Shown: positions 11,063-34,012 of the stretch, piece after piece
Numbering within the stretch: position 1 is the first letter of the stretch
How the letters are laid out: each line of letters starts with the position of its first letter
Assembly (NCBI GenBank): GCA_910587155.1
Contig: CAJULA010000008.1
Location: 32,343-96,342 of the forward strand
Direction of reading: 5' to 3'
Source: an uncultured Lachnospiraceae bacterium
Lineage (GTDB): Bacteria > Bacillota > Clostridia > Lachnospirales > Lachnospiraceae
DNA: 64,000 nucleotides
Program-made: the position numbers and the translations under genes
Notes under the pieces: model-generated
What the model saw: only the letters and a program-made list of their open reading frames with translations
Database searches by the model: none
What the model was told of the DNA's origin: nothing

Positions 11063-12061
11063 ATGGAACGCAGAGTGATAGAGACTGGTCTGATGGAAGA
11101 GGACGTCAGGCTGGAAGGGAGTCTGAGACCTCAGTATCTGAAAGATTATATCGGACAGGAAAAGGCAAAAGAGAGTCTGAAAATATATATCGAAGCGGCC
11201 AGACAGAGAAATGACGCACTGGACCATGTGTTATTTTATGGGCCGCCCGGTCTGGGAAAAACGACGCTGGCAGGCATCATCGCCAATGAGATGGGTGTCC
11301 ATATGAAGATAACGAGCGGACCGGCGATAGAAAAGCCGGGAGAGATGGCGGCTATTCTCAACAATCTTCAGGAAGGGGATCTGTTGTTTGTGGATGAGAT
11401 CCACCGCCTGAACAGACAGGTGGAGGAAGTGTTGTATCCGGCTATGGAGGATTATGTGATCGACATTATGATCGGTAAGGGGGCCTCCGCCCGTTCGATC
11501 CGGCTGGATCTGCCCAGATTCACACTGGTGGGAGCCACTACCAGAGCCGGACTTTTGACGGCGCCGCTGCGGGACCGGTTCGGCGTCATCCACCGGCTGG
11601 AATTTTATACGGTCGAAGAGCTCTGTCAGATCATTCTTCATTCGGCCAGAGTGCTGGAAGTGGAGATTGAAAAAAAAGGGGCCATGGAGCTGGCCAGAAG
11701 GAGCCGGGGGACACCGCGTATCGCCAACCGTATCCTCAGGCGGGTACGGGATTTTGCCCAGGTACGCTTTGACGGTATCATTACCGAGACAGTAGCCGAT
11801 ACGGCACTCGATCTGCTGGATGTGGACAGGCTGGGGCTGGATTATGTGGACCGCAGGCTGCTGTGTACGATGATAGAGAAATTTAACGGCGGTCCGGTAG
11901 GGCTGGATACACTGGCGGCCGCCATCGGAGAGGATGCGGGAACGATAGAAGACGTCTATGAACCCTATCTGATCCAGAACGGTCTCATAAACCGCACACC
12001 CAGAGGGCGCATGGTAACCGACCTGGCCTGCCGCCATTTGGGACTTGAAATTCCCCTGTAA
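11063..12061 (+). CDS. ruvB: Holliday junction DNA helicase RuvB
   Basis: [12 protein letters not shown], Walker [12 protein letters not shown], and DEIHRL. The ATG at 11063 follows GGGAGAAG; the ORF-track start at 11027 is an alternative. Confidence 0.95.
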
Positions 12062-12127
12062 TACAGGTATAATGGACTATACGCTAGGGGATCGTTTGGA
12101 AATACGGTTATCTTACAGATAAGGGGT

Positions 12128-12544
12128 ATGGAGATGGCAGCAAAAACGGATACGGAAGTGATTATCGGCGGGAAGGTCTTTACTCTGAGCGGATATGAAA
12201 GTGAAGAGTATCTTCAGAAGGTGGCTTCCTATATTAATAATAAAATAGCGGAGTATAATAAGGCCGACCAGTTCCGGCGCCAGTCGCTGGATATCCAGAA
12301 TGTGCTGCTGCAGCTCAATATCGCGGACGATTATTTCAAGGCCAAGAAACAGATCAGTATTCTGGAAGAGGATATCGAGAGCAAGGAAAAAGAGATTTAC
12401 GATCTGAAGCATGAACTGATCGCGTCCCAGATGAAGATGGAGAGCACCGAGAAAAACATGAAAGCTCTGAAAAAAGAGCTGAACGAGAATGCGAAAAAGA
12501 TCGTCCGTATGGAGACAGAGTTAAAAGGACAAAAAAAGGCATGA
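12128..12544 (+). CDS. zapA: Cell division protein ZapA
   Basis: VIIGGKVFTLSGYESEEYLQKVASYINNKI followed by a coiled coil. The stop overlaps the next start (ATGA). Confidence 0.85.
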   Translation: MEMAAKTDTEVIIGGKVFTLSGYESEEYLQKVASYINNKIAEYNKADQFRRQSLDIQNVLLQLNIADDYFKAKKQISILEEDIESKEKEIYDLKHELIASQMKMESTEKNMKALKKELNENAKKIVRMETELKGQKKA

Positions 12545-14784
12545 ACAAAGTCGAGCTGTTGGCGCCGGCAGGCAGCCTGGAAGGTTTTCAGGGGGCTGTT
12601 CATGCGGGAGCGGATGCCGTTTATATTGGTGGAAGAAAATATGGAGCCAGAGCATATGCAGGGTTTCCCCCGGAAGAGATATGCCTGGCTATTCGTTATG
12701 CACATTTATATGGAAGAAAAGTGTATCTGACCGTCAATACGCTGGTACGGGAGTCCGAGATGGAAGAACTTCCGGATTTTATCCGCCCTTTTTATGAAGA
12801 AGGGCTGGACGGGGTTATCGTACAGGATATGGGAGTCCTTTCCCTGGTGCGGGAAGCGTTTCCCCTCCTTCCCCTTCATGCCAGTACCCAGATGAATATT
12901 ACGGGCGCGGACGGGGCAGAATTTCTGCTGGCCCACGGAGTTTCGCGGGTGGTGCCTGCCAGAGAGCTGTCCCTGCCGGAGCTGCGTGCGATCAAAGAGA
13001 CAGGGATCGAAGTGGAGGCCTTTGTCCATGGCGCCATGTGTTACTGCTATTCCGGACAGTGTCTGTTTAGCAGTATGCTGGGCGCAAGGAGCGGGAACCG
13101 GGGCAGGTGTGCCCAGTCATGCCGGCTGCCCTATCAGGTGCTGGATGAACAGGGAAAAGAAAAATGGCCGGATGGCGGCTGTCCTCCGTACCCGCTCAGC
13201 CTCAAAGATATGTGTACCCTGTCATTTCTGCCGGAGATTCTGCAGAGTGGGATTGATTCTCTGAAAATAGAAGGACGGATGAAAAAACCGGAATATACTG
13301 CCGGTGTTACCGCCCTCTACCGCCAATATATCGACAGATACTATGAAAAGCCTGCGGAGGAATACAGAGTTTCGCAGGAAGACAGGGAAAGACTGCGCAG
13401 ACTGTATATTCGCAGCGAAATACAGGAAGGCTATTATCACAGGCATAACGGCAGAGCGATGATCACGCCTGGCAAGCCGGGATATCTCGGCGCAGATCCG
13501 GCATATCTGAAGGAAATACGGAGAAACTATATCGAATCGGCCCCTGCAATTGATGTGGACGGAGAGGTTATTCTAAAGAAAGGCAAGCCTGCTGTCTGCC
13601 GTTTTTGGAAGAGGGAAAACGGGCAGAGCGGAGAGTTGCTCATCAGCCGGGAAGGCCAGATGGTTATGACGGCGCAAAGGCAGCCGCTGACAGAGGAGGC
13701 TGTGAAAAAGCAGATGACAAAGTGCGGCAATACGCCGTTTGCCATCCGCAGACTGGATGTCACTATGGAGGCGAATTGTTTTCTTCCCGTCAGGGCACTC
13801 AATGATCTGCGCCGTGATACCCTGGGGGCACTGGAGAGGAAGATGACGGATAGCGGCCGCCGTAGCAGCCATAGGGAAGAAGATGGGGGATCGAAAGAGA
13901 CTGCCACGGGGACGGCGCCGGAACAGGGAGGGATCCCTTACAGTGCCATCCAGTTTGAGACATGGGAGCAGATGGAAGCCCTGTATGACAGTACATTTCC
14001 TGACCGGCTTTATGTAAGCGGTGATCTTTTGTCCAAAGAGAGCGAAAGCAGAAGGTCCCCGCAGCTTGAGGCATGGAAACAGAAAAAGAAGGGCAGGGAA
14101 CTGTTTCTTATGATGCCCCGCGTAATCCGCCGTCGGGACGAGCCATATCTGTCCGCACTGAAAAAAATTCTTTTTGCCGGTGATACGATATGGGATGGGG
14201 TGCTGTTTCACAATGTGGAGAGTTTGCGCTTTCTCGAAAAAAACGGATATCAAAAAAAGAAAATGGCGGATGCCGGTCTGTATGTGTGGAATCAGAGAGC
14301 CAGACGGTTCTGGCAGGAGCTTGGAGTGGGGACGACAGCGCCGCTGGAATGTAACAGTGAGGATCTTGGCAGACTGGGCCTTTCAGGAATGGAAATGGTT
14401 GTATATGGACGCAGTCCTTTGATGGTAACGGCAAACTGTTTCTATCAGACCGCGGGCCGGTGTCTGAGGAAGGAAAGGCAGGGCGGCGCGGAGAGCGGAA
14501 GGCTTTTGCTGCGCGACCGGTATCATACGGATTTCCCGGTGCGGGCTGTGTGCAGCCACTGCTATAATGAGATTTATAACAGTGTGCCCCTGTCCCTGCA
14601 TGAATATGGCAGATCAGTGGCGGCTGCTGCGGTGGCCGGCATCCGCCTTATATTTACCACGGAGGGGCCGGCGGAGATCCGGCAGGTTCTGGATTGTTTC
14701 CGGGATTTCACCACAGCGCCCGGTCGCCGGAGAACCGTGCCGTTTCCCTGTACAAAAGGCCATTATAAAAGAGGAGCGGAATAG
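12541..14784 (+). CDS. U32-family peptidase-like protein, long form
   Basis: VELLAPAGSLEGFQGAVHAGADAVYIGG and the U32 signature region E..R.SGNRGRCAQSCR. Confidence 0.9.
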   Translation: MNKVELLAPAGSLEGFQGAVHAGADAVYIGGRKYGARAYAGFPPEEICLAIRYAHLYGRKVYLTVNTLVRESEMEELPDFIRPFYEEGLDGVIVQDMGVLSLVREAFPLLPLHASTQMNITGADGAEFLLAHGVSRVVPARELSLPELRAIKETGIEVEAFVHGAMCYCYSGQCLFSSMLGARSGNRGRCAQSCRLPYQVLDEQGKEKWPDGGCPPYPLSLKDMCTLSFLPEILQSGIDSLKIEGRMKKPEYTAGVTALYRQYIDRYYEKPAEEYRVSQEDRERLRRLYIRSEIQEGYYHRHNGRAMITPGKPGYLGADPAYLKEIRRNYIESAPAIDVDGEVILKKGKPAVCRFWKRENGQSGELLISREGQMVMTAQRQPLTEEAVKKQMTKCGNTPFAIRRLDVTMEANCFLPVRALNDLRRDTLGALERKMTDSGRRSSHREEDGGSKETATGTAPEQGGIPYSAIQFETWEQMEALYDSTFPDRLYVSGDLLSKESESRRSPQLEAWKQKKKGRELFLMMPRVIRRRDEPYLSALKKILFAGDTIWDGVLFHNVESLRFLEKNGYQKKKMADAGLYVWNQRARRFWQELGVGTTAPLECNSEDLGRLGLSGMEMVVYGRSPLMVTANCFYQTAGRCLRKERQGGAESGRLLLRDRYHTDFPVRAVCSHCYNEIYNSVPLSLHEYGRSVAAAAVAGIRLIFTTEGPAEIRQVLDCFRDFTTAPGRRRTVPFPCTKGHYKRGAE

Positions 14785-21202: not shown

Positions 21203-21565
21203 ATGAAAAGGACTTCGATGAATACCCGGATGGGAACAATTCTGATTGATAATGAAGTGATTGCCCAGTATGCGGGCTCGGTGGCGGTGGAATGCTTCGG
21301 CATCGTGGGAATGGCGTCCGTCAATGTCAAAGACGGCATTGTAAAGCTGCTGAAAAAAGACAGCATCACACACGGAATCGCCGTGACCGTCGGCGCGGAT
21401 CACAGGCTGACGCTGGATTTCCATGTGATCGTATCCTATGGCGTGAGTATACTGACGGTAGCGGACAACCTGACAGACAGTGTCAGATACAAGGTGGAAG
21501 AATTTACAGGACTTGAGATAGAAAAAATTAATATCTATGTGGAAGGAGTCCGGGTAATTGACTGA
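21203..21565 (+). CDS. Asp23/Gls24-family envelope stress protein (YloU-like)
   Basis: AGGAGG RBS. IDNEVIAQYAGSVAVECFGIVGMA is typical of the family. Confidence 0.9.
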   Translation: MKRTSMNTRMGTILIDNEVIAQYAGSVAVECFGIVGMASVNVKDGIVKLLKKDSITHGIAVTVGADHRLTLDFHVIVSYGVSILTVADNLTDSVRYKVEEFTGLEIEKINIYVEGVRVID

Positions 21566-21575
21566 TAAGGAGGAA

Positions 21576-23228
21576 ATGCCAGTGGTTTGTAATGAGATCG
21601 GAGCCGGGATGATCGCGAAGATGTTTCTGGCCGGCGCCCGCAGTCTGGAGGCAAAAAAAGAATGGATCAATGAACTGAATGTGTTCCCGGTGCCGGACGG
21701 AGATACCGGTACGAATATGACAATGACCGTCCTTTCGGCAGCCCGGGAAGTGGCGGCTCTGAAAGACCCTGATATGAAGGAGCTTTCAAGAGCGATTGCT
21801 TCCGGCTCGCTCAGGGGGGCACGGGGAAATTCAGGCGTGATCCTGTCGCAGCTCTTCAGGGGCTTTACCAAAGGAATCGAAGGATATACGAGGATAACGG
21901 TGCCGGTATTTGCGGATGCCTTTACCAAGGCGGTGGAGACGGCCTATAAAGCGGTTATGAAACCAAAGGAAGGGACGATTCTTACCGTGGCCCGCAGCGG
22001 CGCCGAGCGGGCGGCACAGCTCAGCGAAGAGGGCGAAGAAAATCTGGAAGTTTTTTTCCGGGAGATTTTGGAGCATATGGAGTATACGCTCAATCAGACA
22101 CCGGAAATCCTGCCGGTACTGGCGCAGGCAGGTGTGGTTGATTCGGGCGGGCAGGGGCTGCTGGAGGTATTGAAGGGCGCTGTTGACGCTTTTCTGGGCA
22201 AAGAGACGGATTACGCGCCGATTCTGCCTGTCTCTGCGAATGACCGGGAAGAAATGCCCGCTGTCGCGGAAACCGCGGAAATACGGTTTGGTTACTGCAC
22301 GGAATTTATTATCATGACAGAGCGGCCGGTAGAGAGAAGAAGGGAAGAGGCTCTGAAGACGTATCTGGAATCCATAGGGGATTCTCTTATCGTCGTGGCG
22401 GATGAAGAGGTCATTAAGGTACATGTACATACCAATGACCCGGGTCTGGCTATTCAGAAAGCGCTGACATACGGCCAGCTTTCCCATATGAAAATAGATA
22501 ATATGCGTCTGGAGCATCAGGAAAAGCTGTTTAGGCAGGCGGAAAAGCCGCCGGAGGAAAAGCCGCACAAGGCGATGGGCTTTGTCGCCGTATGCGCAGG
22601 GGAAGGCCTGTGCCGGATCTTTCGTGAACTGGGCGCCGATGAGATCATAGAAGGCGGACAGACAATGAACCCGAGCACGGAAGATATGCTGCAGGCCATC
22701 CGGGCGGTTGCGGCAGACACGGTTTTTATCCTCCCCAACAATAAAAATGTGGTGATGGCGGCGCAGCAGGCCAGGGATATGACCGATGACAAAAAGGTGA
22801 TCGTGATGCCCTGTCACAGCGTACCCCAGGGTATCACTGCCATCGTCAGCTATGTACCGGAGCTGTCCGCGGAGGAGAATGAAAGTTCCATGCTGGAAGA
22901 AATCGGCCATGTGAAAACCGGACAGATCACCTATGCGGTCAGAGATACTTCCGTAAACGGCAGAGAGATCCGCCAGGGAGACTACATGGGGATCGACGAT
23001 ACGGGAATTGTGGCTGTCAGCAGTCATCTGGAGCGGGCAGTGCTGGAAACCGTGGGGGTGATGGCAGATGACGGGACGGAACTGCTCAGTATCTATTACG
23101 GAAAGGAAGTAAAAGCGGAGGACGCTGAGGCGGTAAAAGAGAAGATAGAGAGGAAATATCCGAAGCTGGATATCGAACTTCAGGACGGCGGTCAGCCTGT
23201 CTACTATTATCTGCTCTCCGCAGAGTAG
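21576..23228 (+). CDS. yloV: DAK2 domain fusion protein YloV
   Basis: TAAGGAGGA RBS before the ATG at 21576. DAK2 motifs are present (PDGDTGTNM, GARGNSGVILSQ) with a C-terminal DegV-like half. Confidence 0.9.
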   Translation: MPVVCNEIGAGMIAKMFLAGARSLEAKKEWINELNVFPVPDGDTGTNMTMTVLSAAREVAALKDPDMKELSRAIASGSLRGARGNSGVILSQLFRGFTKGIEGYTRITVPVFADAFTKAVETAYKAVMKPKEGTILTVARSGAERAAQLSEEGEENLEVFFREILEHMEYTLNQTPEILPVLAQAGVVDSGGQGLLEVLKGAVDAFLGKETDYAPILPVSANDREEMPAVAETAEIRFGYCTEFIIMTERPVERRREEALKTYLESIGDSLIVVADEEVIKVHVHTNDPGLAIQKALTYGQLSHMKIDNMRLEHQEKLFRQAEKPPEEKPHKAMGFVAVCAGEGLCRIFRELGADEIIEGGQTMNPSTEDMLQAIRAVAADTVFILPNNKNVVMAAQQARDMTDDKKVIVMPCHSVPQGITAIVSYVPELSAEENESSMLEEIGHVKTGQITYAVRDTSVNGREIRQGDYMGIDDTGIVAVSSHLERAVLETVGVMADDGTELLSIYYGKEVKAEDAEAVKEKIERKYPKLDIELQDGGQPVYYYLLSAE

Positions 23229-23265
23229 GATGTTTTTTTCGGCGGTTTTGCGGACCTTCGCCCTG

Positions 23266-24000
23266 TCAGGTACGTATTTTGGTCAGGACATAGCCGAACC
23301 TGATCCATCTGTTGAAGGCGGCTTCCTCTTCCCTGTCTATGATGATCGGTCTGCCCAGATTGTTGACCGGTTCCAGTACCCAGGGAGAGGAGGCGGCCAG
23401 TCTGCGGACGTAGACGCGGCCCGTGTCCTTATTCAGAAAGATTCCGGTATCGCCCTCGTGGATCGCCTTTTTGCAGATCAGAAGGATGTCGCCATAATGA
23501 TAGGCCGGATGGAGATGATCGGATGTGATCTGTATACCGCAGTAAAGATCGTCTCCGAATTTTTTGCGGTAGGAAGCGGCATTGATTTTATAGAAATGAG
23601 AAGAATCATACAGCATGCCGTCTTCCATACTGCCTGTGGGTACAAAGACGGTAATATAATCGTCCGTATCTGTATGATCCTCGGAAAAGTCGATTTCGAA
23701 ATCAAGGATACCTCTGACAAAATTTTGCTGCCGGGGAGACATGCTTTTCCATTTCTGGAGAAGCCGGGTATCCTCTTCATACTGATCAATCAGTTCCAGA
23801 ATTGCCTTCCCCGTCATGGCCTGCAAAAGTTGTGCCGTATACAGATCAATTTTTGTCGTTGAGCCGGAGATGATTTTCTTATAACCGGACAATGACATTT
23901 CCAGCTTCTTTGCCATCTGCGCCTGTGTCAGTCCGCGCTTTAATCTCTCCTTTTCCATATTCAGCGTAAAATTCTTTGCAATCTCCTGCTTTGATAACAT
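23266..24000 (-). CDS. XRE-family HTH repressor with C-terminal S24 (LexA/CI-like) peptidase domain
   Basis: HTH is LKRGLTQAQMAKKLEMSLSGYKKIISG. The C-terminus has TGSMEDG ... GDILLICKK ... GDTGIF ... RVYVRRL, resembling the S24 Ser/Lys fold. The ATG at 24000 gives MLSKQE. Confidence 0.8.
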   Translation of the reverse strand: MLSKQEIAKNFTLNMEKERLKRGLTQAQMAKKLEMSLSGYKKIISGSTTKIDLYTAQLLQAMTGKAILELIDQYEEDTRLLQKWKSMSPRQQNFVRGILDFEIDFSEDHTDTDDYITVFVPTGSMEDGMLYDSSHFYKINAASYRKKFGDDLYCGIQITSDHLHPAYHYGDILLICKKAIHEGDTGIFLNKDTGRVYVRRLAASSPWVLEPVNNLGRPIIIDREEEAAFNRWIRFGYVLTKIRT

Positions 24001-24099
24001 GACAGTACCTCTACAAATGGTCACTTTCGGAACCATTTTTTATCTTTGGAAACGGATCAGGAAAGGCTTTTGGCCATGACAGTAACTCCTTTTCCGGTA

Positions 24100-24115
24100 T
24101 ATAATTCGAATTATA
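24100..24115. promoter_or_regulatory. Perfect 16-bp palindrome (candidate operator) in the divergent promoter region
   Basis: TATAATTCGAATTATA reads as TATAAT on both strands. ATGACA lies 18 nt upstream on the + strand. Confidence 0.6.
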
Positions 24116-24169
24116 ACACACGCGTAATAATATTGAAATAAAAATGTAAGATAGAAGGGCGGGATATCT

Positions 24170-24661
24170 ATGAAAAGGGAATTTGTGGAGCATGTGTTAA
24201 TATCAATGGGAATGCCCGTGAAGCTGAAGGGCTTTAAGTATATTGCAGAAGCGGTGCTGCTTCTGGATACACCCGAGTGGCAGGAACCTAAATGGACGGC
24301 TCTGTATTACAAGATCGCCAGATTATACGGAGATACGGAATCACGGGTGGAACGGGCCATCCGCAATGCGTTTACCACAACCCGTACCCGGGTTACCAAC
24401 TATGAACTGATTGATCATTACATTGGATTTACCAATTGTCAGAATTCCAACTCTATTACCTTTCTACACCGAAACATCAAAGAAGAATTTTTGAAAAAGC
24501 AGCAAGAAGAAAAAACGGAATTTATATGGGACGAAGAACAGGAGATACAGTTTGCAGAGGTAACACTGGAACAACTTCAGTCTTTCAACGAAGTAACCGC
24601 AGATATGATCAAAGAGATCGTGCGCAAGACATTGAAGGAGATGCTATTTGAACTCGCATAA
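24170..24661 (+). CDS. Stand-alone Spo0A C-terminal (DNA-binding) domain protein, no receiver domain
   Basis: GMPVKLKGFKYIAEAVLLL....ALYYKIARLYGDTESRVERAIRNAF matches the Spo0A_C helix pattern. An acidic C-terminal extension follows. Confidence 0.75.
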   Translation: MKREFVEHVLISMGMPVKLKGFKYIAEAVLLLDTPEWQEPKWTALYYKIARLYGDTESRVERAIRNAFTTTRTRVTNYELIDHYIGFTNCQNSNSITFLHRNIKEEFLKKQQEEKTEFIWDEEQEIQFAEVTLEQLQSFNEVTADMIKEIVRKTLKEMLFELA

Positions 24662-24670
24662 CAGTAATTG

Positions 24671-24716
24671 AAACGACGGATGACAAAGCAGGGAGCATGT
24701 CAGCCGTCGTTTTTGA
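24671..24716. terminator. Terminator hairpin between the convergent Spo0A_C gene (+) and LRR gene (-)
   Basis: AAACGACGGATGACA ... TGTCAGCCGTCGTTT forms a stem of about 15 bp with 1 mismatch, followed by TTTT on the + strand. Confidence 0.6.
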
Positions 24717-24732
24717 TATTCCTCTATGTATA

Positions 24733-26676
24733 TCAGCGGATCAGGATGTCATCCAGTCCGGCCGTATCGGCGATGGGGTTGTCTTCACAGAGAACGAATT
24801 CCAGCGCGGGAAGCTCAGTGAGCGGTGTCAGGTCAACGACGTAATTGTCGGTGATGTCCAGCAGTCTTAACCCGGTCAGACCATACTCGGAAAGAAATGT
24901 CAGGTCGGTCAGTTCATTTCCCTTCAGATATAGAGTATCCAGTCCGGGGAAGTTTTCAAACATATCGGTATGCTGGGACAGGGTCAGTTTCTGCTCATCC
25001 TGCAGCCAGCCCCGTCCGCCCGCGTCAGTGAGCTGATAAAGGGTAACATTGTCCATATCCAGCACCCTCAGATTTTCATTTGGAGAAAGAGATTCCGTAT
25101 TCAGCCCGATGTTGCAGTCAGCCATATAGAGCTCCTCAAGAGTGGGAATGGAGAGGAGTGCGGCTGCGTCTGCATAGACGGTGCTGCCTGTGATATCCAG
25201 TCCCAGCAGACCCGGAATGCGTGTGACAGGTTCCAGATTGACGTGATAGCCGGACATATCATACAGATCAAGATAGATCAGATTGTGCAGGGAATCCAGA
25301 AACGTCAGATCTTCGCAGTTACAGTCATCCAGAGACAGATAAGACACATTGCCCGCGTCGCGCACGGCGCTTATGTCACCGGCCCCTTTTATGCCCAGAT
25401 ATTCCAGATTCTGCAGTCCGGCAAAAGAAGGAAGGGTGTTTTCATAGGAAACAGTCAGCTGTAGCTGTGTCAGGTTCGTCAGTTTTTCCAGTGTGCTTAA
25501 ATCACTGATTTTCCAGGTATCTTCAAGGCTTAATTCTGTCAGGGAATCCGCACACGATTCCAGCGCGTGAATGGACATCAGTTCATCCGTATCAGAAAGA
25601 TAGAGTGCGGACAGCATGGGCATATTTTCCACGAAACCGATATCCTTCAAAGAGGAAGACTCGATGGAAAGATGCTGCAGTGCGCCCAGGTCGTAAAGCG
25701 GACTGAAATCCGAGACACGGTCGCAGTCGGCAAGGGAAAGCCCTTCCAGGCCGGGCACGGACGAGAGTGCGCTGATATCCTGCATATCCGAACAGTCTGC
25801 CGCAAAGAAGATCAGATTGGGGAAATTTTCGATGCCGTCGCAGGAGTTCATGAAAATAGTGGAGTTGATCTGGATATAGGAGATATTTTGCGGATCAGGC
25901 ACCGCATCATACAGTTCGCTCAGTGTCATATCGGAAGAGATGCAGGCCAGAGAGTCCATACCTTTTAAGTCGCCCGGATTCAGATGTCCGTATTCCAGAG
26001 CCAGCCAGGAAACGTTTTTGAAACAGGAGAGATCCGCCAGATCCATGTACAGGTCTTCATTGAGAAAATAATTTATGGTCGTACCGTCATCCAGACAGCA
26101 GGAAATACATTTACGGTTATCATCGTCATAGTACAGATCCAGTTCTGTAATCTGGTTCAGATGCGCCATTGTGATCTCGGAAAAATCCACATCAAAAATC
26201 TGAGAAACCAGTACCTGAAATGACTCTGACTGGGGAAGCGCATCCTCTTCCATGACGGCGCTTTCATATTCTGACGCAGTGCTTTCCGTGGGAGCGGCGA
26301 CAGTGGAAGCATCCACATCTTCGCCGGACAGGCTTGAGACATGGAAGAGGGCCACGGCGACGACAAAGACAAAGACAATGCCAAATGTGACCCAACCGAT
26401 GATGGCGGAAACATTTGCCTTGTTATTATGGCGGGAAGCGGATACCGTGATGCCGCGCGGCGGCTGATAAGGAATCTGCCCTCCTGCATAGGTCTGCTGA
26501 TTTGTGACAGGCCCCGGCTGCATCGCGGGCTGCTGCCACTGGGGCGTGGAATCCACAGATATGGGAGATGTGGCATCTTTATCTATGATCTGATAATAAC
26601 CGCAGTTCTGACAGATCATACGGCCGTCCTGCTCTCTCATGCGTGTGGAACAGATGGGACATTTTTCAAGTTTCAT
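24733..26676 (-). CDS. Zinc-ribbon / single-TM / leucine-rich-repeat (LRR) protein
   Basis: N-terminal CPIC...CQNC ribbon, Gln/Pro-rich linker, TM helix (IIGWVTFGIVFVFVVAVALF), then about 500 aa of LxxLxLxxN/C-type repeats. Confidence 0.85.
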   Translation of the reverse strand: MKLEKCPICSTRMREQDGRMICQNCGYYQIIDKDATSPISVDSTPQWQQPAMQPGPVTNQQTYAGGQIPYQPPRGITVSASRHNNKANVSAIIGWVTFGIVFVFVVAVALFHVSSLSGEDVDASTVAAPTESTASEYESAVMEEDALPQSESFQVLVSQIFDVDFSEITMAHLNQITELDLYYDDDNRKCISCCLDDGTTINYFLNEDLYMDLADLSCFKNVSWLALEYGHLNPGDLKGMDSLACISSDMTLSELYDAVPDPQNISYIQINSTIFMNSCDGIENFPNLIFFAADCSDMQDISALSSVPGLEGLSLADCDRVSDFSPLYDLGALQHLSIESSSLKDIGFVENMPMLSALYLSDTDELMSIHALESCADSLTELSLEDTWKISDLSTLEKLTNLTQLQLTVSYENTLPSFAGLQNLEYLGIKGAGDISAVRDAGNVSYLSLDDCNCEDLTFLDSLHNLIYLDLYDMSGYHVNLEPVTRIPGLLGLDITGSTVYADAAALLSIPTLEELYMADCNIGLNTESLSPNENLRVLDMDNVTLYQLTDAGGRGWLQDEQKLTLSQHTDMFENFPGLDTLYLKGNELTDLTFLSEYGLTGLRLLDITDNYVVDLTPLTELPALEFVLCEDNPIADTAGLDDILIR

Positions 26677-26852
26677 ACGTATCTTGTTCCTTTCCTGTAA
26701 TAGTGGATATCGCTTTCTCTCCGTACACGGCGTACTGCCAGGGGATTGAGGTATACCCTTGTAATGATTATTTTAACATAAATAAGGATAAAGGGGAATT
26801 GTGATTTATGGCAGGAAGGGGTAAAATAATCTGAGACAGGGGAGGTGCGGCG

Positions 26853-28187
26853 ATGAAGAGCAGGAAAAACAAAATCTGTTATCTATTGCCGGTCCTGCTT
26901 ATTCTGGCTGTGGCCCTGGGACTGTCGCCGGTGACGGAATGGGTTCGCAGAGAAAAGGGTGAGCGGGAGGGAATTGTGATTGACATAGAGGATAACAGTG
27001 AGTATGCCGGGAATCCGGATTATGAGTTGTATGGTTATACCCGCTATATCCGGGACGGAGAGCTGCTGCTTCGGGCGGAGCGGTATGACGGCGACGGGTG
27101 GCAGCAGGAATGGATGCAGTGGGTTTACGACGAAGCGGGGCGGACGGCAGAGGAACGCTTTTGCGACGGCCCGGGGCGTGAGTGGGAAACGGGTAAAGAG
27201 AAACAATATGAATATGATGAACAGGGAGACCTTGTGCATGAATGGGAGTACGAAAACGGTATCCTGAATGAGGAGAGCTTTTACCGGCCGCTGGAGGAAG
27301 GATTTGCAGGCGTCACTTATACTTACGAAGTGTCCGGAAAAGAAGGAAACAACCCCTTGTGGCAGATCGCTTCCTACGAGTCCTATGTGTGCAATACACA
27401 AGGGGACGTCCTCTATTGTCTGCGCTATGACAAAGATGGGGAACTGACCTCATCCATGCGTGCGTACTATGATGAGAGGGGACGGCTGCTCGGATGGAAG
27501 GAAGGCAGCAGGGAGGATGCGAGATGGCGGGTATACAGTGCCGACTGGCAGGAGGAGGGTGGCACGGTTGCCAATACCGTAACCTGTTTCGGGAGGACGG
27601 TGTATGCGGAAACCTATGTTCGCGATCCGGCTACGGATGCACTGCTTCTGACGGCACATACGCCGGGGAGCGAGACGGGAGAGGACTCGGGCATCTACCG
27701 GGCGGCGTATGACAAAAGCCAGCTTTTATGGGAGATGAGCTGCCTTGGAGAAAGACTGGACTGCTTTCGGTCTCTTTGTTATGACCAGGCCGGAGCACTC
27801 AGTCACGAACTGGCATGTGTGGCGTATGATGACGGATTTGACTGTGTGCTGCGCCGTTATGAATATGACAGCGAGGGAAGACTGCTGGGAATGTATGATT
27901 ATGAGAGTCGCGTCGTATATGGAGCGATGGGCATGGACGGCGGCAACGGATATGCAGTGCTTGCCGCGGAAACATTCGGAAAATGGCCGCTTGCGATCCT
28001 GATCTATGATCCGGACGGTGAGGTAAGGGAACGTCTGTCGTTTGATGAATCCGGCATGTTTACTGAGGAAAAGAAAGCTGGCGGAAGTATGAAGGAGTGG
28101 GAGGGAGAACCAAAACATGGCAATGATAGGAATCGATCTGGGAACGACAAATTCACTGGCGGCACTCTGGCGGGGCGGCCGGGTTGA
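26853..28187 (+). CDS. Membrane-anchored YD-repeat (Rhs-like repeat) protein
   Basis: GGGGAGGTG RBS and an N-terminal TM/signal anchor. Repeated YD motifs are present (VYDEAGRT, YEYDEQGDLV, RYDKDGEL, YYDERGRLLG, YEYDSEGRLLG, IYDPDGEV). The last 71 nt overlap the Hsp70 gene. Confidence 0.7.
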   Translation: MKSRKNKICYLLPVLLILAVALGLSPVTEWVRREKGEREGIVIDIEDNSEYAGNPDYELYGYTRYIRDGELLLRAERYDGDGWQQEWMQWVYDEAGRTAEERFCDGPGREWETGKEKQYEYDEQGDLVHEWEYENGILNEESFYRPLEEGFAGVTYTYEVSGKEGNNPLWQIASYESYVCNTQGDVLYCLRYDKDGELTSSMRAYYDERGRLLGWKEGSREDARWRVYSADWQEEGGTVANTVTCFGRTVYAETYVRDPATDALLLTAHTPGSETGEDSGIYRAAYDKSQLLWEMSCLGERLDCFRSLCYDQAGALSHELACVAYDDGFDCVLRRYEYDSEGRLLGMYDYESRVVYGAMGMDGGNGYAVLAAETFGKWPLAILIYDPDGEVRERLSFDESGMFTEEKKAGGSMKEWEGEPKHGNDRNRSGNDKFTGGTLAGRPG

Positions 28188-29835
28188 GCTGATCCCCAAT
28201 TCATTTGGGGAATATCTGACGCCGTCGGTGGTCGGTATCGGACAGGGCGGAGAGATCCATGTGGGCCGGGTGGCGGCGGAGATGCTTATCACCAGTCCGG
28301 CACATGCCTTTGCAGAATTCAAGCGCAATATGGGGACAGACTGTAAATATGGAAAGGATGGGGCCTATACGGCAGAAGATCTTTCTTCTTTCGTACTGCG
28401 CAGGCTGAAGGAGGATGCGGAGGCCTATCTGGGAGAGCCGGTCACGGAAGCGGTGATCAGCGTCCCGGCCTATTTCAATGACGATAAACGATGCGCCACA
28501 AAAAATGCGGGGAAGCTGGCCGGGCTCCATGTAGAGCGTCTGATTAATGAGCCTTCCGCCGTAGCCCTGAAGCATCATATGGGAAACGAAGAGGCGGAAA
28601 CGTTTATTATCTTTGACTTTGGCGGCGGCACGCTGGATGTTTCGCTTGTCGACGCGTTTGACAATATGGTGGAAATCCAGGCGGTGGCAGGAGATAATCA
28701 CCTTGGCGGCAAAGATTTCAATGAGCTGATTGCCGCTGAGTTTTACAGAGAAAATAAGATTATGGAGCATCTGCTGACGGAGGAAGAGCGGGGAATCGTC
28801 ATCAAAGAGGCAGAAGCGCTCAAACGCCAGCTTACGGATACTGACAGTGCCAGACGGACAGTCATACTTGGCGGCAGAGAATATACAATGCGGATGACAA
28901 ACCAGCATCTGATCCATACGGGCGCAGAACTGTTTCGCAGGATGGCGGTTCCCATCAGACAGGTAATCAGTGACAGCGGGCTGGAGGTGGGAGATATCGA
29001 CAAGATTATCCTGGCCGGCGGTTCCTGCCGGATGCCCGTGGTGGCCCGTTATCTGAGAACTCTGTTGGATATCCCGGTGGTGGCGGATGAAAATCCCGAT
29101 GAGAGCATCGCCATGGGAGTCGGTATCGCGGCTGCCATCAAGGAGCGTGAGGGAGATGTCAGGGATATGATCCTGGCGGATATCTGCCCCTTTTCCCTGG
29201 GAGTCGCTGTTTATGACGGGAGTTTTTCCCCGATTATACAGAGAAATGATACCCTGCCCTGCAGCCGGACAGAATATTATGTGACGGTCAGCGACAACCA
29301 GACGGCTATGAAGTTTCCTGTCTATCAGGGGGATAATCTGATTGCCAGAGAAAACCTGCTGCTTGGAACGATGGAGATCACCGGCCTTCCCCGGGCGCCG
29401 AAAGGAACCGTGGGCGCCTCCGTCACCTTTCTGTATGATATCAATGGTATTCTTGATATCCGTATTGACAGCGGCAGACAGAAGCTGCACAAGGTAATCA
29501 TGAACAAACGGATGGGCTTAAGCGAACAGGCGCTGGAGAAACGGCTGGAAGAACTGCGGCAGATGACCCTCAGTCCCATGGAGGATGAGAAAAATCTGTA
29601 CCTGATTGAAAAGGCGCAGCGACTGTACCGGGAATGCAGCCCCGGCGTGAGAAGCTATCTTGTGTCGGCGCTGATGCATTTCCGCGAAGTGCTGGAAAAC
29701 GGGCAGGGACGGGAAATCAGGGAAGCCTATGTACAGTTTTCCGTTTATCTGGACGCGATAGAGAAAAACAAGTTTCATTTCAGCGGCTTTGACGAATCCT
29801 TTTTTGAAGACGACAGGGAAGATGAGATGGACTGA
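28117..29835 (+). CDS. Hsp70-family chaperone, short HscC-like type (572 aa)
   Basis: IGIDLGTTNS, NSFGEYLTPSVV, VISVPAYFNDDKR, DFGGGTLDVS, LAGGSCRMP, FSPIIQRNDTLP. From memory it resembles E. coli HscC more than DnaK, and it lacks the DnaK C-terminal EEVD-type tail. Confidence 0.9.
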   Translation: MAMIGIDLGTTNSLAALWRGGRVELIPNSFGEYLTPSVVGIGQGGEIHVGRVAAEMLITSPAHAFAEFKRNMGTDCKYGKDGAYTAEDLSSFVLRRLKEDAEAYLGEPVTEAVISVPAYFNDDKRCATKNAGKLAGLHVERLINEPSAVALKHHMGNEEAETFIIFDFGGGTLDVSLVDAFDNMVEIQAVAGDNHLGGKDFNELIAAEFYRENKIMEHLLTEEERGIVIKEAEALKRQLTDTDSARRTVILGGREYTMRMTNQHLIHTGAELFRRMAVPIRQVISDSGLEVGDIDKIILAGGSCRMPVVARYLRTLLDIPVVADENPDESIAMGVGIAAAIKEREGDVRDMILADICPFSLGVAVYDGSFSPIIQRNDTLPCSRTEYYVTVSDNQTAMKFPVYQGDNLIARENLLLGTMEITGLPRAPKGTVGASVTFLYDINGILDIRIDSGRQKLHKVIMNKRMGLSEQALEKRLEELRQMTLSPMEDEKNLYLIEKAQRLYRECSPGVRSYLVSALMHFREVLENGQGREIREAYVQFSVYLDAIEKNKFHFSGFDESFFEDDREDEMD

Positions 29836-29858
29836 CCGGCAGGAGAAGGGAAGAATCT

Positions 29859-30986
29859 ATGGATATATGGAACGTGCTGGGGATTGCGCGGACGACGGAT
29901 ATCCGGCAGATCAAAGGAGCCTACGCCCGGCAGGCCAGACAATATCATCCCGAGGATCACCCGGAGCAGTTTCGCCTGCTGCAGAAGGCTTACAAAGCGG
30001 CGCTGCAGTATGCCAGAAACGGCGGGCGCACGGGGACGGCACACATACAGTCCGGGGACCTGGGGAGAGAGCCGGAGGCCCATACGCAGCCGATGGACTG
30101 CCGGACAGAGCCGGAGGCCCGTATGCAGCCTGCGGATCGGCGCCCGGAGCCGGAATCCGGGCAGTCGCCTGTTGTTCTGCCAAGGGACGTGCCCTCCGCT
30201 GCGTCATCGTCTGCGCCGGCCGGAGCCGGAACGGGCGAAGAACGGGAGTTTGATTTTTCCGGGATTGATGCAGACGGGGAAAAAAACAGTTTCTTTGTGC
30301 AGTTTCATCTGATTGTCTGCAATCCGTGTCTGATCAATAACCGGATTGCCTGGAATCTGTTTCTGAACAGGCCAAAGTGCCAAAAACTGTTTCAGGAGCC
30401 TGCCTTCAGGGAAGAATTTGTCAGAACTCTCTGTGGTCTGCATGGATTTCGCAGAGATACCCTCCTTTTGTTTGAACAATATCTGAAACAGTTTCACCAG
30501 GAACAGGAGGGACAACGCGGCAGACGCAGGGAAACGGATCTGCCCTGTTTTTTAAAGATGAAATGGCTCCATACCCGGATGGCCGCATTTGACAGCGAAA
30601 GATTTAAGGGAAAAGAAGGTATGGCGTTCCAGAATATGGTCATGGCCCGTTTTCGCCGTCAGGAACGCATGATTGATCTGGGGCGCCGCAGGGATGTGGA
30701 AGATTATATGCAGGTTTACTTCGCATTTGCCGCTTCCAATGAAGAAAAACTGTACCGCCTTTACCGGAAAAGGAAATATGCCCGCCTGCGAAGCGTCGTT
30801 TTGTGCCTGCTGATCCTTTCGCTTTCCTTTACCGCTATTTTGGGCGGCGGACTTTTGCAGGGCAGGGCGGCCCGGAGGGCAGAGGAGGCCTATCGGGAGG
30901 AGATCCGTTCTCAGCAGGAAAAACAGGCGCCTGCGATCAGAACAAGGGCCGAGAAAGAGATAGACAGGATACTGGAGAAGTATTGA
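29859..30986 (+). CDS. J-domain protein with C-terminal TM helix (DjlC-like architecture); HPD replaced by HPE
   Basis: The J domain reads MDIWNVLGIARTTDIRQIKGAYARQARQYHPEDHPEQFRLLQKAYKAAL. A Pro/Glu repeat linker follows, then the hydrophobic helix VVLCLLILSLSFTAILGGGLL near the C-terminus. Confidence 0.85.
   Translation: MDIWNVLGIARTTDIRQIKGAYARQARQYHPEDHPEQFRLLQKAYKAALQYARNGGRTGTAHIQSGDLGREPEAHTQPMDCRTEPEARMQPADRRPEPESGQSPVVLPRDVPSAASSSAPAGAGTGEEREFDFSGIDADGEKNSFFVQFHLIVCNPCLINNRIAWNLFLNRPKCQKLFQEPAFREEFVRTLCGLHGFRRDTLLLFEQYLKQFHQEQEGQRGRRRETDLPCFLKMKWLHTRMAAFDSERFKGKEGMAFQNMVMARFRRQERMIDLGRRRDVEDYMQVYFAFAASNEEKLYRLYRKRKYARLRSVVLCLLILSLSFTAILGGGLLQGRAARRAEEAYREEIRSQQEKQAPAIRTRAEKEIDRILEKY
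30069..30160 (+). repeat. Imperfect 39-bp tandem repeat (about 2.4 copies) inside the J-protein gene
   Basis: Units start at 30069, 30108 and 30147, each opening with GAGCCGGA; units 1 and 2 share GAGCCGGAGGCCC, unit 3 reads GAGCCGGAATCC. They encode EPEAHTQPMDCRT / EPEARMQPADRRP / EPESGQSP. Confidence 0.6.
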
Positions 30987-31009
30987 TCACATGGCGCCCG
31001 AACATCAGG

Positions 31010-31038
31010 TTGTAATTTTATCTTCGTTTTGTTAGAAT
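31010..31038 (+). promoter_or_regulatory. Promoter candidate for recG with extended -10
   Basis: TTGTAA, a 17-nt spacer ending in TGT, then TAGAAT. Confidence 0.45.
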
Positions 31039-31082
31039 ATGTTAAGGTTATTGTCAGAGCATGTTCTGATGGGAGAGTACAG

Positions 31083-33116
31083 ATGGAATCAAATTCGCAA
31101 ATCCGCGTATTAAAAGGCGTCGGTGAGAAGACGGCCGCTCTGTTTGAAAAAATTGGCATAGGGAATATAGAGGATTTGCTGCGGCATTATCCCCTGGCCT
31201 ATGATACGTTTTCTGCCGCTGTTGCGATGGACAGGCTGCAGGCCGGTGTGCTGTGTGCGGTGCGCGGACGGCTGTCCGGGGGGATTGCCATGAGGCGGGT
31301 ACGCTCTCTTACGATCTCCGTCTGCCGGGTCAGCGACGGGACGGAGACGGTTTCCCTCACTTTTTTTAATATGCCGTATCTGAAAAACAGGATAAAGCCG
31401 GGAGAAGACTATATTTTCCGCGGTGTGGCGCAGGGCGGGCCGGGGAAATGGAAGATGGAACAGCCTGCGGTCTGTACGCCTTCCGCTTATGAAGAACTGC
31501 TTGATACCCTGCAGCCCCGGTATTCTCTGACAAAGGGACTGACCAATCATATGGTGACAAAGGCAATGCGGCAGGCTCTTTCCCTTTGCAGCGGGCCGGG
31601 GGAGTATTTACCGGAGGATATCCGGGCATGCTATGATCTGATGGAATACCGGGAGGCACTGGAAGGCATTCATTTTCCCGCGCACAGAGACATGCTGCAA
31701 AAGGCGAGGAACCGGCTGGTATTTGATGAATTTTTTCTGTTTATACTGCGATTGCGGTGGTGCCGGGAGCATGAACAGGCGGCGGAGAACAGATGGCCCA
31801 TGGCGGACAGGCCGGAGAGCGAGCGGCTGATCCGGGAGCTGCCGTATCCTCTGACGGGTGCGCAGAGACGGGTCTGGGACGAGATCAAAGCGGACCTTGC
31901 GGGAAAGACGGTGATGAACCGGCTTATACAGGGGGATGTGGGGTGCGGCAAAACGATATTGGCAGTGCTGGCCTTGCTGCAGACAGTGGCCTGTGGCTGG
32001 CAGGGTGCGCTGATGGCGCCGACGGAAGTGCTGGCAAGGCAGCATTTTGAATCCCTGTGCGAGCTGACAAAGGCGCATGACCTGCCCTTTGTCCCCCTGC
32101 TTTTGACCGGTTCCATGTCAGCCAGGGGAAAAAAAGAATGCTACCGACAGATTGAGTCAGGAGAGGCCAATGTGGTGATCGGTACGCATGCGCTCATTCA
32201 GGAAAAGGCAGTGTATCGGAATCTGGCGCTTGTGGTGACGGACGAGCAGCACCGTTTCGGTGTGCGTCAGCGGGAAGCACTGGCCGGAAAGGGGACAGAT
32301 ACCCATGTGCTTGTCATGAGCGCCACGCCCATCCCCAGGACGCTGGCCCTTATTCTCTACGGGGATCTCCACATCTCACTCGTGGATGAGATGCCGGCCC
32401 GGCGTCTGCCGATCAAAAACTGTGTGGTGGATATCTCTTACCGGGAAAAAGCGTACCGCTTTATCGGAAAGGAGATCGAAAACGGCAGACAGGCCTATAT
32501 TATCTGCCCCATGGTAGAGGAGGGGGAGATGGAAGGGCTGGAGAATGTAGTGGCCTACAGTGAAAAACTAAAGGGTATCTTTCCTGCGCAGGTACGGATT
32601 GCCGCTCTTCACGGCAGGATGAAAGCTGCGGAAAAAAACAGGATTATGGAGGCGTTTGGCCGGGGAGAGATTGATATTCTTGTCTCCACAACCGTGGTGG
32701 AGGTAGGAATCAATGTCCCCAATGCTTCGGTGATGATGGTGGAAAATGCGGAACGTTTCGGTCTGGCGCAGCTCCATCAGCTCCGCGGAAGGGTGGGAAG
32801 GGGCAGTGAGCAGTCCTACTGTATTTTTGTCAGCACGTCCGGGCAGACGCATACGATGGAGCGGCTGTCGGTTCTGCGCAGATCCAATGACGGGTTTCTG
32901 ATTGCGGAAGAGGATCTGCGGCTGCGGGGGCCGGGCGACATGTTTGGGATCAGACAGAGCGGCAGTCTGGAATTCAGGCTGGCGGATATTTATCAGGATG
33001 CAAAGATATTACGGCAGGCAGACCGGGCAGTGGAAGATCTTCTGAGGAAGAAAGGCGGCATGACGGGAGATCTGGGGCTGTCTCTTCCCTATATGGTTGA
33101 CTTTGCAGGCATCTGA
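31083..33116 (+). CDS. recG: ATP-dependent DNA helicase RecG
   Basis: GGGAGAG RBS before the ATG at 31083. LPYPLTGAQRRV, Walker A GDVGCGKT, DEQHRFGV, and the TRG-region QLHQLRGRVGRG. Confidence 0.95.
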   Translation: MESNSQIRVLKGVGEKTAALFEKIGIGNIEDLLRHYPLAYDTFSAAVAMDRLQAGVLCAVRGRLSGGIAMRRVRSLTISVCRVSDGTETVSLTFFNMPYLKNRIKPGEDYIFRGVAQGGPGKWKMEQPAVCTPSAYEELLDTLQPRYSLTKGLTNHMVTKAMRQALSLCSGPGEYLPEDIRACYDLMEYREALEGIHFPAHRDMLQKARNRLVFDEFFLFILRLRWCREHEQAAENRWPMADRPESERLIRELPYPLTGAQRRVWDEIKADLAGKTVMNRLIQGDVGCGKTILAVLALLQTVACGWQGALMAPTEVLARQHFESLCELTKAHDLPFVPLLLTGSMSARGKKECYRQIESGEANVVIGTHALIQEKAVYRNLALVVTDEQHRFGVRQREALAGKGTDTHVLVMSATPIPRTLALILYGDLHISLVDEMPARRLPIKNCVVDISYREKAYRFIGKEIENGRQAYIICPMVEEGEMEGLENVVAYSEKLKGIFPAQVRIAALHGRMKAAEKNRIMEAFGRGEIDILVSTTVVEVGINVPNASVMMVENAERFGLAQLHQLRGRVGRGSEQSYCIFVSTSGQTHTMERLSVLRRSNDGFLIAEEDLRLRGPGDMFGIRQSGSLEFRLADIYQDAKILRQADRAVEDLLRKKGGMTGDLGLSLPYMVDFAGI

Positions 33117-33127
33117 ACGTAAAATAA

Positions 33128-34012
33128 ATGAGGAAAATAGTCGGAAAGGAAAGAGACGTGACTGCGATTGTAACAGACTCTAACAGCGGGATTACACAGG
33201 AAGAAGCCAGAGAACTGGGGGTATTTGTACTGCCCATGCCTTTTATGATAGAGGATGTCATTTATTATGAGGGGAAAGACCTGACGCAGGAGACATTTTA
33301 TAAAAGGATGGAAGCAGGAGAGCGGATCAGCACCTCTCAGCCCACGCCGGAGGAAGTGACAAGGCTGTGGGAGGAAGTGCTGAAGGAGCATGAACAGCTG
33401 GTCTATATACCCATGTCCAGCGGGCTTTCCGGTTCCTGTCAGACGGCACAGCTTCTGGCAGGGGATTATGAGGGCAGAGTTTTTGTGACGGATAATCAGC
33501 GGATTTCCGTTACCCAGAGGCAGAGTGTGAAGGACGCGCTTTTGCTGGTACGGGAGGGGATGGATGCCGGACGGATCAGGGATACACTGGAAGAGGACCG
33601 GTTTCATTCCAGTATCTATATTATGCTGGAAACGCTGACTTATCTGAAGCGGGGCGGACGTATCACACCTGCGGCGGCGGCACTGGGAAATATCCTGCGC
33701 CTGAAACCGGTACTGCAGATTCAGGGAGAAAAGCTGGACGCATTTGCCAAAGCGAGAACACTGGCGCAGGGCAAAAGCATTATGACAAATGCGGTAAAAA
33801 ACGACATTGCCCGGCGGTTTGGCGGCAAAGAGGCAGGTGTGCGGCTGTTTATTGCCCACAGTCATAATGAGGCCGGGGCGCAGGCTTTTCGAGAGGAACT
33901 CAGATCGGAATTTCCGGGCAGCGAGATTGAGATTCAGTGCCTGTCGCTGAGTATCGGCTGTCATCTGGGGCCGGGTTCTCTGGCGCTGGCCTGTACGCAG
34001 AATCTTCGCTAG
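33128..34012 (+). CDS. DegV-family fatty-acid-binding protein
   Basis: IVTDSNSGITQEEA...STSQPTPEE...YIPMSSGLSGS... are typical DegV motifs. Confidence 0.9.
   Translation: MRKIVGKERDVTAIVTDSNSGITQEEARELGVFVLPMPFMIEDVIYYEGKDLTQETFYKRMEAGERISTSQPTPEEVTRLWEEVLKEHEQLVYIPMSSGLSGSCQTAQLLAGDYEGRVFVTDNQRISVTQRQSVKDALLLVREGMDAGRIRDTLEEDRFHSSIYIMLETLTYLKRGGRITPAAAALGNILRLKPVLQIQGEKLDAFAKARTLAQGKSIMTNAVKNDIARRFGGKEAGVRLFIAHSHNEAGAQAFREELRSEFPGSEIEIQCLSLSIGCHLGPGSLALACTQNLR

Follow-up and report, generated by a model that had tools for sequence, protein, structure and literature searches.

Gene organisation of the locus

The window analysed here, a stretch of 64,000 nucleotides (nt) from a mouse-gut Lachnospiraceae bacterium in which all positions below are numbered, carries on its + strand three consecutive genes for a YD-repeat membrane protein, an Hsp70 chaperone and a membrane-bound J protein, described in this report as a candidate module. 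The open reading frames (ORFs), taken from the ORF list of the window, and the signals that precede them are:

26799–26827, + strand: candidate promoter of the three-gene unit, TTGTGA-17-TAAAAT (consensus scan, 9/12 matches, weak)
26839–26847, + strand: ribosome-binding site (RBS) of the YD gene, GGGGAGGTG (read from the sequence, 5 nt 5' of the ATG at 26853)
26853–28187, + strand: YD-repeat membrane protein, 444 amino acids (aa) (ORF, Pfam, TIGR01643, AlphaFold)
28099–28107, + strand: RBS of the Hsp70 gene, GGGAGGGAG, within the YD ORF (read from the sequence, 9 nt 5' of the ATG at 28117)
28117–29835, + strand: HscC-type Hsp70, 572 aa (Pfam HSP70, E 1.7e-116)
29841–29850, + strand: RBS of the J gene, AGGAGAAGGG, within the gap that follows the Hsp70 gene (read from the sequence)
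29859–30986, + strand: bitopic J protein, 375 aa (ORF, Pfam DnaJ 32.2 bits)

The YD and Hsp70 ORFs overlap by 71 nt (28117–28187), the Hsp70 gene being in the +1 frame relative to the YD gene, and 23 nt lie between the Hsp70 stop codon (29833–29835) and the ATG of the J gene at 29859. All three RBSs are purine-rich. An initial annotation, made by reading the sequence, had given the ORFs, the overlap, the gap and the RBS string of the Hsp70 gene exactly as found here, and had seen no terminator between the genes. The terminator scan agrees, in that no terminator-like site was found in the 23-nt gap, and the + strand matches at 27753, 28618, 29175, 30158 and 30526 are all weak stems of 5–8 bp within ORFs. 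The candidate promoter lies inside the 176-nt intergenic region between the YD gene (+) and a divergent leucine-rich repeat (LRR) gene (-); the scan that returned it gave 14 sites against 9.5 expected in shuffled sequences. An Rfam scan of 23000–33500 produced no match.

Contigs identical to the locus are present in four mouse-gut metatranscriptomes, and some of them cross the YD/Hsp70 junction (27986–28162) or the Hsp70/J junction (29763–29962), which is consistent with co-transcription.

Translation from 28117 yields MAMIGIDLGTTNS, the N-terminal phosphate-binding motif of the Hsp70. Since MA[IV]IGIDLGTTNS opens every homolog, this ATG is taken to be the true start; automatic gene callers that avoid overlaps cut off the motif, as in L002, where 524 aa are annotated. 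The initial annotation had allowed for the overlap being a sequencing frameshift artefact. Sampled words of the locus were 100% present in 20 mouse-gut metagenome runs (nine study codes), the region 27800–28500 is identical in four independent DNA assemblies, with no substitution and no indel, and the same 71-nt overlap occurs in the L003/L023 species, the YD protein of which is 61% identical. The overlap is therefore real, and an artefact is ruled out. A programmed YD–Hsp70 fusion is likewise ruled out, since relatives have stop codons and gaps between the two genes: the gap is 20 nt in L007 and 5 nt in L009, and in many other relatives the start directly follows the stop or the ORFs overlap by 10 nt. 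The 71-nt overlap is specific to the lineage of the window.

The Hsp70 protein

The 572-aa Hsp70 scores far under every DnaK and HscA equivalog cut-off of NCBIfam. It is 36% identical to Escherichia coli HscC over the full length, lid included, versus 32% to DnaK and 29% to HscA, and its length, like that of its homologs (564–587 aa), is that of HscC-type proteins (550–580 aa) rather than of DnaK (about 640 aa). Alignment with DnaK and HscA places a gap of ~25 residues in lobe I of the nucleotide-binding domain (NBD; DnaK residues 76–101), at the same place as in E. coli HscC; this deletion also occurs in some non-proteobacterial DnaKs and so is not unique to HscC (PMC8215388). The GrpE signature loop is gone as well, in a reading that depends on the alignment, which has a gap there of six residues in the window protein and of four in E. 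coli HscC. The published list of HscC-type features further includes an insertion of 4–8 residues in loop L1,2 and a nine-residue deletion in lid helix B (PMC8215388). The former (NRQG in E. coli HscC, four residues) is absent from the window protein and from all eight aligned members of its clade, as it is from DnaK; the lid as a whole is short and can be aligned with that of HscC along its entire extent, in a region where the multiple alignment is unreliable. For a further feature of the class, an ATPase that responds solely to its own HPE-type J protein, the window shows the adjacency of the Hsp70 and J genes. In a neighbour-joining tree, distance-based and without support values, all of the Hsp70s that adjoin J genes of the HPE type described below group with E. 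coli HscC. By these sequence features the window protein is an HscC-type specialised Hsp70. The comparison with HscC and its partners DjlB and DjlC, made in the initial annotation, holds at the level of sequence, in identity, in the NBD deletions and in the HPE motif.

Its C-terminus forms a distinct element:

29773–29832, + strand: acidic-aromatic C-terminal tail of the Hsp70, FHFSGFDESFFEDDREDEMD (conserved in the clade)

The pattern FxFxGFDESFF(E/D)DD is kept across the clade, with or without a YD gene. Speculatively, it may be a docking motif comparable to the EEVD tail found in eukaryotic Hsp70s. Opposite the Hsp70 gene lies an antisense ORF (28201–29490, - strand, 429 aa) that matches Pfam PF10712 'NAD-GH' (E 1.2e-30). 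We take this family to have been built from ORFs antisense to hsp70 genes, and for that reason the ORF is regarded as a by-product of the coding structure of the Hsp70 gene and the match as no evidence of a gene.

The J protein

The 375-aa J protein can be divided into the following segments:

29859–30020, + strand: J domain, residues 1–54 (Pfam, AlphaFold limits)
29946–29954, + strand: HPE triad, residues 30–32 (alignment)
30027–30263, + strand: disordered linker, residues 57–135 (AlphaFold)
30279–30737, + strand: helical domain of unassigned family, residues 141–293 (AlphaFold, confident)
30786–30857, + strand: membrane helix, residues 310–333 (hydrophobicity, AlphaFold)
30858–30983, + strand: outer helix, residues 334–375, 42 aa (AlphaFold; one long helix together with the membrane segment)

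In the J domain the customary HPD is replaced by HPE (H30-P31-E32), which is invariant in 14 J homologs and aligns with the HPE of E. coli DjlB and DjlC. The J domain is 35–41% identical to those of the two E. coli proteins, ungapped (BLASTP, 53–57 residues), with an hhalign probability of 97%. HPE has been described as a peculiarity of DjlB and DjlC, the partners of HscC, and as the one tolerated variant (PMC13254874); a second source, which also gives it as a DjlB/DjlC peculiarity, finds it in about 1% of all J proteins (PMC10410713). On sequence grounds, then, the J domain of the protein is of the HPE type known from DjlB and DjlC, the partners of HscC.

The three proteins are alike in having this domain at the N-terminus and a membrane helix towards the C-terminus, and differ in the rest. 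Beyond the J domain neither hhalign nor BLASTP found any similarity of the window protein to DjlB or DjlC. Its helical domain has no fold match in the PDB and no Pfam match even at E = 1, and no relation of it to DUF1266 (YbeU) or to the centre of DjlC was found. DjlB and DjlC end within their membrane helices, whereas 42 residues follow that of the window protein. The membrane tether and hydrophobic helix of the initial annotation are borne out by the helix at 310–333, and because of these 42 residues the protein is better called bitopic than a pure tail anchor. An aromatic-x-x-W motif in the outer helix is a post hoc impression gained by eye; a profile hidden Markov model (HMM) gave no separation of J proteins with and without a linked YD gene.

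The YD-repeat protein

The first gene specifies a protein of 444 aa with the following parts:

26874–26933, + strand: signal-anchor helix, residues 8–27, preceded by the basic N-tail MKSRKNK (hydrophobicity)
26979–28082, + strand: beta-hairpin sheet, about residues 43–410 (AlphaFold model)
28083–28184, + strand: disordered tail, residues 411–444, encoded by the overlap (AlphaFold, predicted local distance difference test [pLDDT] 23–37)

It matches Pfam RHS_repeat (27.3 bits, cut-off 22) and TIGR01643 (22.8 bits, cut-off 15.8). The AlphaFold model, built on an alignment of 16 sequences (pLDDT 83.4, predicted TM-score 0.76), shows one N-terminal helix followed by 27 hairpin strands. With Foldseek its top matches in the PDB were Rhs effectors, the BC shells of Tc toxins and teneurins (E 3e-11 to 1e-7), at low global TM-scores (0.10–0.25), as would be expected of a piece of such a sheet.

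The likeness to Rhs/YD shells (RhsA and RhsP of the type VI secretion system, Tc toxin BC, teneurins) lies in the YD motif and the sheet of antiparallel beta-hairpins. In contrast to these, the protein is anchored by an N-terminal membrane helix and is roughly a third of their length, with ~370 aa of repeats against roughly 960–1,400 residues in the solved Rhs chains that Foldseek matched. Searches of Pfam and NCBIfam gave nothing beyond the repeat, with no Rhs core, autoproteolytic cleavage motif, toxin domain or secretion-system marker. The initial annotation had recognised the N-terminal anchor (the hydrophobic helix at residues 8–27), had thought the YD segment too short for a full Rhs shell and had noted no toxin domain; all three points stand.

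The family is very rare. A word-indexed protein search gave two clusters only with the YD query and mostly generic YD proteins with the family alignment, and the family was recovered by an exhaustive HMMER search, which found 21 clusters (50% identity) in 1.84 billion representatives. All members are of 240–550 aa, and an N-terminal hydrophobic helix is common to the aligned full-length ones. In the family alignment the C-terminus is conserved, not polymorphic; in the sister species the conservation of the C-terminal tail is attributed to the other frame, which encodes the N-terminus of the Hsp70.

Linkage of the YD gene to the chaperone pair

The initial annotation had named one finding that would count against a functional link, namely that homologs of the YD protein are never found next to Hsp70/J genes. 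A linkage scan was run on one genome per species with J-domain motifs only as the query, and the YD family members were identified with a YD profile of our own. The 80 loci returned were mostly from Lachnospiraceae, with other Clostridia and two Halopseudomonas, and had an adjacent Hsp70 gene in nearly all cases. A YD-family gene adjoins the Hsp70/J pair in 23 of the 80, in the order YD-Hsp70-J (16 loci), YD-J-Hsp70 (6 loci) or Hsp70-YD-J (1 locus). The scan did not refute the link suggested by the initial annotation, and supports it. Spacing at the junctions is close, with a start codon right after the stop or an overlap of 10–71 nt. At L045 a divergent YD-J pair has no adjacent Hsp70.

The chromosomal surroundings vary. 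In the clade of the window six genes lie between fakA and recG (HTH repressor-like, Spo0A_C-like, Zn-ribbon-LRR, YD, Hsp70 and J), a block that is kept down to 42% identity of the J protein. The module stands before a TetR/MFS gene pair in L013, L028, L032, L033 and L037, and after a divergent MTHFR gene in L014, L041, L047, L050, L051 and L055. Distant YD homologs, looked up directly and independently of the J-based scan, gave the following arrangements:

L016: YD homolog P0035; YD-Hsp70-J, then a PDDEXK gene
L013: partial YD homolog; YD overlapping Hsp70, then J, then TetR
L014 (Acetatifactor): YD homolog P0037; YD-J-Hsp70, after a divergent MTHFR gene

YD-linked and YD-less loci are intermingled in the Hsp70 tree, where the former are spread over several subclades of a single crown group. 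The recurrence of adjacency in three gene orders and in several chromosomal settings marks the linkage as old and repeatedly retained through rearrangement, yet not as obligatory. Clustering of the genes that neighbour YD-less Hsp70/J pairs revealed varied neighbours and no universal third gene. By raw count, many of those neighbours specify exported proteins or lipoproteins.

Predicted membrane topology, and a fusion of the J and YD families

Each membrane helix is preceded by a basic flank, MKSRKNK in the YD protein and YRKRKYARLRS in the J protein, and on this basis both are predicted to have the N-terminus inside and the C-terminus outside. This orientation would leave the YD sheet and the J tail on the outer side, with the J domain and the helical domain facing the cytoplasm. 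The YD relative P0039 lends independent support to an external sheet, for its C-terminal domain is a LysM, which binds peptidoglycan (34.5 bits, cut-off 20.9); a similar match in L047 is borderline.

L019 specifies a protein of 576 aa (11401–13128) in which the helical domain of the J family, the membrane helix and the outer helix are fused at the C-terminus to ~300 aa of YD repeats. It matches the J profile with 113.9 bits over positions 138–385 and has no J domain. The gene adjoins that of the YD homolog P0040, and Hsp70 is absent within 10 kb. In this fusion the YD repeats and the outer helix of the J part share one side of the membrane; by Rosetta-stone logic, the fusion suggests that the J and YD proteins interact where they are separate.

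Comparison with known chaperone systems

The E. coli genes hscC-djlC-ybeU-ybeT-djlB-ybeR-ybeQ are clustered, as are those of the window. The accessory genes differ, being for a YD-repeat protein in the window and for DUF1266 and Sel1 proteins in E. coli, as do the hosts, the Lachnospiraceae being of the Gram-positive type. YbeT (E. coli K-12, L020, 678852–679406), encoded in the same locus as HscC, DjlB and DjlC, combines an N-terminal hydrophobic anchor with Sel1 repeats; it is thus an exported repeat protein and a possible functional parallel to the YD protein.

In two other cases, E. coli DjlA with DnaK and eukaryotic Sec63 with BiP, a membrane-embedded J protein confines the work of an Hsp70 to a single membrane face and ties it to events at or across that membrane. 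DjlA has an N-terminal anchor and an HPD motif, and the J domain of Sec63 is lumenal; neither is known to have a partner with YD repeats.

Known since 2002, HscC-type Hsp70s and the HPE-type J proteins that partner them still lack a defined client, partner or role in the cell (PMC8215388); for HscC itself nothing is defined beyond sensitivity to Cd2+ and UV, and it is thought to act on the cytosolic parts of membrane proteins (PMC8215388). The initial annotation knew of no described system with the YD/Hsp70/J architecture, and none was found in the literature on HscC/DjlC, on YD repeats with Hsp70 and on DUF1266/Ybe genes, a coverage outside which falls the J-protein survey of Barriot et al. 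2020 (J Mol Biol).

Proposed function and alternatives

The reading that we favour, with a probability of roughly 0.55, is that the three genes belong together as a conserved module, probably a single operon, which builds a membrane-spanning assembly with the YD protein as the outer-face partner of the J protein. The YD protein would be signal-anchored with its N-terminus inside, presenting its ~370-aa beta-sheet on the outer face beside the cell wall. The J protein would hold its J domain, linker and ~150-aa helical domain in the cytoplasm, cross the membrane by one helix and place its 42-aa helix outside, where the YD ectodomain may associate with it. On the inner face the J domain would recruit the Hsp70 and switch on its ATPase, and the Hsp70 would clamp cytoplasmic segments of the YD–J complex or of neighbouring membrane proteins, candidate targets being the basic N-tail of the YD protein and the linker and helical domain of the J protein. 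In this way the module would link a structure on the cell surface with ATP-driven processes at the membrane, be it remodelling, signalling or turnover. The initial annotation had suggested that the YD protein is a client or partner of the chaperone pair. Of the two, partner is favoured; a folded client is less likely, given the predicted external position of the YD domain, and the protein would rather serve as a dedicated extracytoplasmic partner of the J protein, as sensor or scaffold.

Several observations weigh against this reading. A YD gene occurs without Hsp70 or J genes within 10 kb in L017, while L027 retains the LRR, Hsp70 and J genes and has lost the YD gene, and among the closest Hsp70/J pairs about one in two lies beside other genes. 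The fusion is a single one from one metagenome-assembled genome (MAG); a scan of metagenome contigs with a degenerate DNA pattern for the J helical domain returned eight loci, all of them ordinary YD-Hsp70-J arrangements. J proteins with and without a linked YD gene were not told apart by the HMM of the outer helix. The RNA contigs are unstranded and of low depth and may reflect DNA carry-over. Finally, what the sequences show is the gene architecture, the families and the linkage; the topology is predicted, and the contact between the YD and J proteins and the target of the Hsp70 are ones that we infer.

The first alternative, possible but clearly the less probable, is that the YD protein is a client before export, the Hsp70/J pair keeping an aggregation-prone all-beta protein unfolded in the cytoplasm and handing it to Sec or YidC. 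This would suit the tight, often translational, coupling of the YD and Hsp70 genes, the all-beta repeat structure of the AlphaFold model and the position of the J protein at the membrane. DnaK, moreover, aids the membrane insertion of the tail-anchored DjlC, and curli secretion (PMC8215388). YD-family proteins without a linked Hsp70 (L017, L019) speak against it, and in L019 no dedicated Hsp70 is at hand for the export that the YD domain, fused behind a J-less membrane protein, must undergo. A targeting role would also leave the conserved outer helix of the J protein unexplained, and signal-anchor proteins are normally targeted co-translationally by the signal recognition particle.

Surface sensing for defence or envelope stress is improbable as the function. 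On this account the YD sheet, with LysM in some relatives, would detect phage, wall damage or a ligand, and the Hsp70/J pair would release or inactivate a cytoplasmic effector or regulator. The architecture required is the same as that of the favoured assembly, and regulators do lie nearby, HTH repressor-like and Spo0A_C-like in the clade of the window and TetR in another; these differ between clades, however, and none is a conserved output. There is a precedent in E. coli, where the membrane J protein DjlA and DnaK trigger Rcs envelope signalling. Against it, no PADLOC match to the YD, Hsp70 or J protein was found, and the locus is passed on vertically at a constant position among housekeeping genes, outside any defence island.

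We also disfavour the readings of the locus as a toxin system, as a defence island or as pure synteny. A miniature Rhs or polymorphic-toxin system with the Hsp70 as loading or unfolding chaperone, which the YD repeats and the Foldseek likeness to Rhs, Tc-BC and teneurin shells might call to mind, is very unlikely given the short repeat region, the lack in Pfam of an Rhs core, cleavage motif, toxin domain or secretion marker, the conserved C-terminus and the absence of an immunity-like small gene downstream. Hardly more credible is an absence of any functional link, with the genes neighbours by inherited synteny only: the whole six-gene block is indeed syntenic in the clade of the window, which alone proves nothing, and some YD genes and many Hsp70/J pairs occur apart, but adjacency survives three gene orders and several unrelated chromosomal contexts, and the L019 fusion joins the J and YD families.

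Returning to the membrane-spanning assembly, the module supplies the HscC class with a candidate partner that is conserved and linked to it genetically, together with a topological hypothesis in which contact is made on the outer face and the chaperone would act on the inner one. YD repeats would here be a small anchored surface domain and not a toxin cage. A bolder and quite tentative extension is an Hsp70-powered transmembrane device of Gram-positive bacteria, in which the HscC-type Hsp70 would be coupled, mechanically or allosterically, through the bitopic HPE-type J protein to the extracellular YD sheet, so that either cytoplasmic ATP hydrolysis remodels a surface structure or the chaperone reads out a surface event. 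If true, the HscC class would gain its first defined role and partner, and YD repeats would have a new use other than in toxin shells. Gut Clostridia widely carry HscC/HPE-J pairs, and cultured relatives exist in Acetatifactor muris (L051 is from a MAG of that species) and the mouse-gut isolate 'Bacterium 0.1xD8-71' (L037).

Neighbouring genes

The genes that surround the module in the window are:

21558–23228: fakA, flank of the six-gene block
23266–24036, - strand: HTH_3 repressor-like gene (Pfam)
24170–24661, + strand: stand-alone Spo0A_C-like gene (Pfam, E 4.8e-15; no receiver domain)
24733–26676, - strand: Zn-ribbon / membrane helix / LRR surface protein, 647 aa (Pfam LRR_4, E 2.7e-22), divergent from the YD gene
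31029–33116: recG, flank of the block

In the LRR protein a zinc ribbon at the N-terminus is combined with a Q/P-rich linker and a single membrane helix. Its gene stands beside the module only in the fakA-recG clade (10 loci, including the YD-less L027), and the chaperone pair could have a further membrane client or partner in this protein, which may equally have nothing to do with the pair. The HTH_3 and Spo0A_C-like genes are likewise syntenic with the module in the clade of the window only; the latter had the highest metatranscriptome contig depth of the neighbourhood (65x, run X27). Past recG, from 33128, follow degV and a cobalamin cluster (cbiD, cbiG and TP_methylase genes), the same in all syntenic relatives, and the presence of such ordinary housekeeping genes argues against a mobile island.

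In L014 (8844–9866, - strand), and also in L047, L050 and L055, a conserved lipoprotein of ~340 aa (lipobox LSGC), for which no Pfam match was found, is encoded divergently from the YD gene. In these four loci of the YD-J-Hsp70 clade its gene occupies a place corresponding to that of the LRR gene in the window.

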